The translations under genes and the position numbers were made by a program. Under the pieces are notes generated by a model. It was not told the origin of the DNA. It saw only the letters and a list, made by a program, of their open reading frames with translations, and made no database searches. Below are positions 5,882-6,323 of a stretch of DNA of 22,950 nt, in pieces. Each line of letters starts with the position of its first letter. Position 1 is the stretch's first letter. Where the stretch lies: NCBI RefSeq assembly GCF_003334355.1, contig NZ_QOWP01000046.1. One strand, given 5' to 3'. This stretch comes from Escherichia coli (GTDB lineage: Bacteria > Pseudomonadota > Gammaproteobacteria > Enterobacterales > Enterobacteriaceae).

Positions 5882-6323
5882 GCTTGGTGTCTATTCGATG
5901 GATACTCACATACTACGGTAACATCATGAAAAAAATCATAGTTTTTTTAACTCTGAACCAGCAGTGGTAGTGCCAGCGATGACTGGAGTTAACACCATCA
6001 TGCGTGAATATCCAAATGGCGAAAAAACACACCTTACTGTAATGGCCGCAGGGTTTCCATCTCTGACCGGAGATCATAAAGTCATTTATGTAGCCGCGGA
6101 TCGACATGTTACTTCAGAAGAAATTCTGGAAGCAGCAATAAGGCTCTTGAGTTGATTTGATGCTATTGCATTGATAATTCAGGAAAATTCTCTTTGTCTG
6201 TTTGTGTAAAATTTAGACTATCGTATGTTGATTATTGCGATGTTTCATCTTATCTTTTACACGTTTGCACCATATAATCGACTTACTGTGTAACTGGAAA
6301 GTCATAACAGACTAAAAGAGGAA

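Follow-up and report, generated by a model that had tools for sequence, protein, structure and literature searches.

The window (the whole stretch of DNA analyzed here, 22,950 nt in length) matches Escherichia coli K-12 at 100% identity, and it is Qin, a defective prophage; the segment described here belongs to the late region of Qin. Qin genes occur here in the order essD, ydfR, rrrQ, rzpQ, cspI, ymcF (or ynfQ), ynfR, ynfN, gnsB, ydfO, ynfO and nohA. Our subject is ynfN, the gene immediately before gnsB; the coordinates of this gene, its parts and its neighbors are collected in Table 1.

Table 1. The cspI–gnsB segment and the parts of ynfN, in window coordinates
Feature	Position	Strand	Basis or remark
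cspA-type thermoregulator RNA, over the cspI leader and CDS	5297–5681		Rfam RF01766, 114 bits, E = 5e-30
cspI, first gene of the module	5442–5654	+	RefSeq/ORF
ymcF/ynfQ-like cold-shock small protein CDS, ATT start	5665–5853	+	Homolog carries PF23641 (YmcF-like)
ynfR, small ORF	5856–5921	+	RefSeq CDS
G+C-rich hairpin, then a U6 run; terminator/attenuator-like	5858–5885	+	Fold; between ymcF and ynfN
ynfN, frameshifted allele, whole pseudogene span	5926–6155	+	RefSeq CDS 'protein YnfN, frameshifted'
N-terminal fragment ORF, 14 codons, MKKIIVFLTLNQQW	5926–5970	+	ATG 5926–5928, stop TAG 5968–5970
A7 run, codons Lys2–Lys3; not the mutated site	5929–5935	+	Invariant in all aligned alleles
T7 run, where 1 nt is deleted (intact alleles: T8)	5942–5948	+	End of V6, F7–F8
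C-terminal fragment, 63-codon ORF, native YnfN frame (residues 14–76)	5964–6155	+	GTG start, -1 register
51-aa 'YnfN' annotation	6000–6155	+	Within the C-terminal fragment; named YNFN_ECOLI
gnsB, next gene downstream of ynfN	6324–6500	+	RefSeq/ORF

The genes that lead up to ynfN are closely packed: from stop to start, 10 nt separate cspI from ymcF, 2 nt separate ymcF from ynfR, and only 4 nt separate ynfR from ynfN. YnfR-SPA has been detected in MG1655, where it is strongly cold-induced (PMC6001520), and in K-12 the ynfN mRNA co-varies with those of cspI and ynfQ and is itself induced by cold and by stress (PMC11228462; PMC7406224). From this co-variation, the small gaps and the cold induction of YnfR we infer, in part, that K-12 ynfN—a broken gene, as described below—is still transcribed within the cold-shock unit.

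The hairpin of Table 1 overlaps ynfR, and has counterparts at 2507–2545 of locus L002 and 2930–2960 of locus L006; of the two strands, our hairpin scan picks up the stem only on the minus. Both the hairpin and the T-run that follows it are kept in the 76% clade of homologous loci, with changes that preserve the pairing, and the ynfR ORF is absent there. In a divergent E. coli clade the ynfR ORF is interrupted, and is annotated as 'too short'. The conserved element at ynfR may thus be an RNA structure and not a peptide, and antitermination mediated by Csp proteins could explain the cold induction of both ynfR and ynfN.

Upstream of ynfR, the CDS that follows cspI has a GAGGT about 6 nt before its ATT start, and encodes 62 aa with a zinc-ribbon-like CxxC…CxxC arrangement. 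In the 60% clade (locus L010, about 2745–2960), the interval that separates the CSD gene from ynfN holds a homologous ymcF-like ORF, uncalled and without a canonical start. Names for this CDS clash. RefSeq calls it either ynfQ or ymcF, and a 2018 paper on small proteins uses 'ynfQ' for something different: a 37-aa protein encoded between ydfJ and ydfK, at 1632890, which is also where the list of Qin genes in the 2024 EcoCyc paper, headed by ynfT, begins.

Within ynfN, reading from the ATG ends after 14 codons, and what remains of the gene is open in the -1 register. The initial annotation described these two frames, an ATG-initiated ORF of 14 codons ending at 5970 and a 63-codon frame with only a GTG or weak ATG start, and both are present as it described them; the homopolymers, which it placed at 5928–5934 (A7) and 5941–5947 (T7), each lie one base further on (Table 1). 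Residues 1–7 of the 14-codon ORF are those of native YnfN, and residues 8–14 are out of frame. The 63-codon ORF contains in-frame ATGs at 5979 and 6000. A GTG at 5970 overlaps the TAG of the 14-codon ORF, and it is conceivable that reinitiation there produces a putative fragment of 61–63 aa.

It was also proposed that a change of one nucleotide in either homopolymer would fuse the two frames, and, computed on the window, this proves correct: one base added to the A run or to the T run suffices to create a continuous ORF of 231 nt. The N-terminus of the fused product begins MKKIIVFFNSEPAVVV... when the T run is lengthened to T8, and MKKNHSFFNSEPAVVV... when the A run is lengthened to A8. The T8 translation, 76 aa long, is MKKIIVFFNSEPAVVVPAMTGVNTIMREYPNGEKTHLTVMAAGFPSLTGDHKVIYVAADRHVTSEEILEAAIRLLS. 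Intact orthologs of 231 nt exist and encode WP_000720962.1 and WP_000720960.1. The frameshift is, moreover, already recorded: RefSeq (PGAP) annotates a CDS 'ynfN, protein YnfN, frameshifted' at 2577–2806 of locus L001, which corresponds exactly to the ynfN span in the window. The lesion itself is thus already known.

Which run was altered can be read from an alignment of K-12 with the intact alleles of strains WCHEC4533 and MS7163 (the latter a divergent allele) and of phage Tritos. The T run is the sole gap between K-12 and the intact alleles: it is T8 in the intact alleles, T7 in K-12 and T6 in one assembly, and the codons read GTT TTT TTA in K-12 and GTT TTT TTT AAC in the intact forms. Identity between the window and the intact alleles is 99.7% at the DNA level, and one added T restores all 76 codons. 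We considered the A run as the mutated site and rejected it. This run is invariant in all of the aligned sequences, and an additional A would place NHS where residues 4–6 are the conserved IIV, which argues against it as the lesion. The central proposal of the initial annotation, one gene split by a single-nucleotide homopolymer change, is therefore upheld, for the intact alleles differ only in having T8 where K-12 has T7, and the RefSeq label says as much.

K-12's own haplotype also occurs in unbroken form. When a synthetic query of 1,242 nt, composed of the K-12 sequence plus one T, was searched against genomes, 12 wild isolates matched it at 100% over all 1,242 nt, and so the exact K-12 haplotype exists with an intact ynfN. 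The downstream frame of K-12 carries no second lesion in the alignment. This is a point against plain decay, since either the frameshift is recent or the remnant may still be useful.

The protein that K-12 no longer encodes in one piece belongs to a definable family. PHROG 3425, a profile of 76 positions, matches the restored protein over residues 1–76 of 76 (E = 7.2e-54); the two halves are collinear with this conserved family, and the split is no chance pattern. A profile search of 1.84 billion representatives returned a small family of 44, the full-length members of which align from residue 1. Citrobacter and other Enterobacteriaceae have homologs of 75–76 aa, with identities as low as 52%, and all of these use the upstream Met as their start. 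They share K3, F7, F8 and N9 without exception, and the diverged homologs, all of 75–76 aa, start MKK, MPK or MSK, followed by ..VFFN. Comparison with homologous regions and a search for the fused protein, both of which the initial annotation had recommended, thus turned up what a split gene predicts: intact alleles, homologs of 75–76 aa, and the match to PHROG 3425. Homologs with an independent, well-initiated gene in the downstream frame, which it had named as the evidence that would count against a split gene, did not appear; full-length homologs all start at the upstream Met. In place of the uninterrupted run of some 75–76 codons that opens M-(K/P/S)-K..VFFN, the window has an ORF that the T7 run stops after 14 codons, and so this is a disrupted member of the family—a pseudogene allele—and not an intact one.

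In location, too, the window conforms to the family, with ynfN placed shortly after a CSD cold-shock gene, among the late genes of a phage. The order cspI, ymcF, ynfN, gnsB, following the lysis genes, is the same in the window and in the E. coli loci, and a CSD gene lies upstream of ynfN in the 76%, 60% and 52% clades as well. This constant linkage across all clades is the sole functional clue to YnfN; searches of Pfam and NCBIfam with it gave no match, and a search for structural neighbors gave no significant fold match. In distant loci a second, diverged paralog of 75–80 aa, with the same MK.VLVFFN start, is present (L010, 2037–2279; L012, 725–952). It lies on the opposite side of the CSD gene, and the family therefore occurs as tandem copies that flank the cold-shock gene. 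Among phages, all seven records that match the ynfN locus do so over 352 nt, that is, with the additional base. T8 was read directly in Tritos, five others annotate a 231-nt CDS, and LR595862, the second record of 2H10, is known to us as a match only.

What has been lost in K-12 can be judged from the N-terminal segment. Ratios of dN to dS are 0.06–0.31 for codons 1–25 and 0.11–0.18 for codons 26–76, values that come from small samples, with dS saturated for the most distant pairs. An AlphaFold2 model of the 76-aa protein (pLDDT 84.7, pTM 0.71) places strands at residues 2–7, 14–18, 24–28, 34–44 and 52–58, and a helix at 64–75; native YnfN is thus predicted to be a five-stranded sheet with a C-terminal helix. 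Conservation, dN/dS and the modeled strands all identify the segment upstream of the lesion as genuine YnfN coding sequence. The 51-aa protein that goes by the name of YNFN_ECOLI is identical to residues 26–76 of the intact protein and, if the model is right, would be missing the first two strands and the greater part of the third. Since the N-terminal segment is conserved, has a low dN/dS and forms strands 1–2 of the model, the fused frame is the native protein and the 51-aa 'YnfN' of UniProt and EcoCyc a C-terminal remnant of it.

The curated view is otherwise. EcoCyc treats the 51-aa product as a gene, among the uncharacterized genes of Qin (PMC11551758), and UniProt does likewise with YNFN_ECOLI. 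Read in this way the locus would hold two genuine genes, one for a 14-aa leader peptide and one for an independent YnfN of 51–63 aa that starts at GTG 5964 or 5970, or at ATG 5979 or 6000. A GGAG lies 11 nt before ATG 6000, termination–reinitiation could occur where GTG 5970 overlaps the TAG, the ynfN transcript is, as noted, cold- and stress-induced, and there is even a 51-aa family, PHROG 4911, which equals the C-terminal part of YnfN. This short 'family', however, is made up of those very E. coli sequences, with an internal Met taken as the start. Gene callers derive products of 51, 58 and 63 aa from the one locus, even on T8 alleles, and exact-protein look-ups in short-read assemblies, with counts of at least 1,000, are for this reason not diagnostic of T7. 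Phage Tritos is a case in point: it has T8, and yet is annotated with the 51-aa form (locus L005, 1652–1807), which shows that the annotation was transferred from K-12. When every diverged homolog is 75–76 aa long from its MKK, MPK or MSK start, and codons 1–25 are under purifying selection and form two of the five strands of the model, two separate genes seem to us very unlikely.

How common the broken allele is was estimated with allele-specific queries of 86–87 nt, for which only exact matches reach the band of ≥99% identity. The K-12-like clade comprises 1,519 records, of which 1,043 are exactly T8 and 417 exactly T7; the divergent clade, at about 92.6% identity, comprises 560, of which 435 are exactly T8 and 33 exactly T7. 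T8 is thus the form present in most E. coli genomes that have the ynfN locus. K-12 laboratory derivatives, including many independently assembled, dominate the 417 T7 records, and T7 is found in assemblies of MG1655, DH1, DH5alpha, C600, NCM3722 and J53 from many laboratories. No T8 K-12 was seen among the T8 matches listed.

Such uniformity bears on whether T7 in the window is simply a mistake of sequencing or assembly. Homopolymers of 7–8 nt are classic sites of error, one assembly has T6, and strain S1 has an extra A in an A7 run nearby; but with exact T7 in 417 complete-genome records, those just named among them, we regard the chance that the window is in error as close to nil. The extra A of S1 (locus L016) falls at window 4855–4861 (+), in rzpQ, which it renders 'frameshifted', and it represents either another event of slippage or an error of long-read assembly.

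T7 is not confined to K-12. The K-12-like T7 set also contains animal and environmental isolates, which are not K-12, since their terminase gene is intact and the lysis-gene alleles of some are different. SNPs in the flanks define two sub-haplotypes. On haplotype Ia, K-12, CFSAN064036, 13P484A and S1 are all T7, and T8 strains exist too, namely the 12 that match the T-added query; on Ib, RM14721 and WP7-S17 are T7 whereas T2_soil and WCHEC4533 are T8. Both lengths are thus found on each of three backgrounds, Ia, Ib and the divergent clade, and unless recombination or assembly error is to blame, the run has changed length three times or more. Some of the T7 calls outside K-12 may be homopolymer errors of long-read sequencing, and these would lower the count of independent events.

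Runs that change length and toggle a reading frame invite comparison with contingency tracts, and the initial annotation listed phase variation, along with pseudogene and sequencing error, among the possible causes of the split. Under phase variation the T run would be reversible, ON as T8 and OFF as T7, at raised frequency, creating populations mixed for a protein of the cold-shock module. Several features suit this. The tract lies in the ORF and sets its frame (T8 in; T7 and T6 out), T7/T8 polymorphism occurs between otherwise identical haplotypes in three backgrounds, even if some of the calls may be assembly errors, and T6 has been seen in one assembly. In classical contingency genes the tract is placed early in the ORF, and so it is in ynfN. 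A run of 8 nt is, on the other hand, short for high-frequency switching in an enterobacterium that is proficient in mismatch repair, and YnfN has neither a signal peptide nor a surface role that would favor switching. Hundreds of K-12 assemblies, furthermore, are uniformly T7.

Whether the T run is unusually variable can be judged against a neighbor, the A8 run at 6383–6390 in the adjacent gnsB, which served as our control. Within the divergent clade the ynfN run is 8 nt long in 435 records and 7 nt in 33, a 7-nt share of 7.0%, and the gnsB run is 8 nt long in 549 and 7 nt in 28, a share of 4.9%; no strain is listed in both 7-nt sets. On these counts the T run looks about as variable as the 8-nt A/T runs of this module generally are. 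Neither is the tract kept by selection. The codons concerned are GTT TTT TTT in the 76% clade, GTT TTT TTC in the 60% clade and GTT TTC TTC in the 52% clade, a lack of conservation which suggests that the run is a side effect of the codons used for the invariant Val-Phe-Phe. The similar control and the unconserved tract argue against a dedicated device for phase variation, and for ordinary slippage (or, in some assemblies, error) in genes on which selection is weak. We consider phase variation improbable. Of the three causes first listed, then, pseudogene formation stands; sequencing error gives way to the 417 T7 records, and phase variation to a control run that behaves alike and a tract that is not conserved.

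The control tract has a story of its own. In the divergent clade, 28 complete genomes carry the -1 (A7) variant of the gnsB run (+ strand), and a 43-aa 'GnsA/GnsB family' protein is found on 659 contigs, short-read assemblies among them. If this 43-aa protein is the A7 product, then gnsB too carries a genuine frameshift allele, either recurrent or clonal. A second T7/T8 polymorphism occurs in the cspI leader, at window 5390–5396 (+), inside the Rfam cspA-thermoregulator match. K-12 and haplotype Ia are T7 at this run; haplotype Ib and the other clades are T8.

The T7 allele might, alternatively, still yield full-length YnfN as a regulated, low-level device, by -1 frameshifting of ribosomes on the mRNA or by insertion of an extra U by RNA polymerase. 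The zero-frame codons GTT TTT TTA do contain a canonical X_XXY_YYZ heptamer, U_UUU_UUA, with the downstream ORF in the -1 register, and either a -1 slip or an additional U in the mRNA regenerates the exact wild-type sequence, with the junction peptide IIVFFNSEPAVVVPAMTGVNTIMR. Single-base insertions during transcription in E. coli rise exponentially with the length of A/T runs (PMC5574713), and a trace of full-length YnfN is for this reason plausible as noise. U_UUU_UUA, however, is far less shift-prone in E. coli than A_AAA_AAG (PMC5009743), and the 82 nt that follow the heptamer fold no better than shuffled sequences (z = -0.25), and so provide no stimulatory structure. Pairing between A7 and U7 does appear in the MFE fold; it follows trivially from composition, and we rejected it as a stimulatory structure. 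Nor is the two-frame arrangement conserved: a single ORF stays in frame throughout in the homologs and in most alleles of E. coli, and RefSeq's wording is 'frameshifted', not 'programmed frameshift'. We think recoding of this kind extremely unlikely, and would expect at most an accidental leak, no greater than a few percent. We likewise find it hard to credit that the T8/T7 tract serves as a low-frequency ON/OFF switch, or that an extra U or a -1 slip lets T7 supply a little full-length YnfN in a manner tuned to cold.

Unless we misjudge the evidence, K-12 ynfN is very probably a pseudogene created by a one-base slippage deletion, T8 to T7, in the ordinary decay of a weakly selected prophage gene—'weakly selected' being our reading of the allele frequencies. 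On this explanation ynfN would be a small accessory gene (a moron) that lambdoid phages of the Qin type carry in their late region, part of a cold-shock module that runs cspI, ymcF-like gene, ynfR/hairpin, ynfN and gnsB; in its native state it would be 231 nt long and would encode a 76-aa protein. Replication slippage, most likely, would have removed one T in the K-12 lineage from the T8 run in the codons for Val6-Phe7-Phe8, with the result that translation from the native ATG would end after 14 codons and the other 63 codons would be stranded in the -1 register. The 51-aa 'YnfN' that begins at the internal ATG, 6000, would be a remnant and is probably non-functional. The identical one-base loss would have occurred time and again in nature, about as often as in the comparable 8-nt run of gnsB.

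The main value of this is for annotation, because the curated 51-aa 'YnfN' is only the last part of a protein of 76 aa, one that cannot be produced in K-12 from the gene's own start codon. Results obtained with K-12 ynfN, whether by knock-out, by overexpression (ASKA) or from transcriptomes, consequently concern the remnant, and studies of the cspI–ymcF–ynfN–gnsB module should use the T8 allele. The short annotation has spread to phage genomes in which the gene is intact, Tritos for example. Beyond annotation, ynfN is a routine case of homopolymer slippage that erodes the accessory genes of prophages.

Among known systems the closest is the ynfN of Qin-type lambdoid prophages, which is the same gene. 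The window is one T short of the intact 231-nt allele, the gene occupies the same place, after cspI/ymcF and before gnsB, and the restored product matches PHROG 3425 from end to end. The K-12 allele differs in being interrupted, and its curated 51-aa form covers only residues 26–76. Homopolymer contingency loci, which occur in Haemophilus, Neisseria and Campylobacter, resemble ynfN in having a mononucleotide run near the 5' end, and a polymorphism in its length that toggles the frame among close relatives. The ynfN run, in contrast, is short (8 nt), unconserved, and no more variable than a control, and YnfN is neither a surface protein nor a protein of restriction-modification. In its zero-frame U_UUU_UUA, with the downstream ORF in the -1 register, K-12 ynfN is like HIV-1 gag-pol, which has the same heptamer; unlike the A_AAA_AAG of dnaX, this heptamer is weak in E. 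coli (PMC5009743). Programmed -1 frameshifting differs further from ynfN, where a stimulatory structure is lacking and the split arrangement is unconserved. Further parallels come from K-12 itself. Its ilvG and rph-1 are strain-specific pseudogenes created by single-base frameshifts, and ynfN resembles them: an indel of one base has inactivated a gene that other E. coli strains keep whole, every K-12 derivative shares the lesion as a fixed trait, and transcription of the fragments continues. Unlike ilvG and rph-1, ynfN is an accessory gene of a prophage, and the same lesion is found in wild isolates, too.
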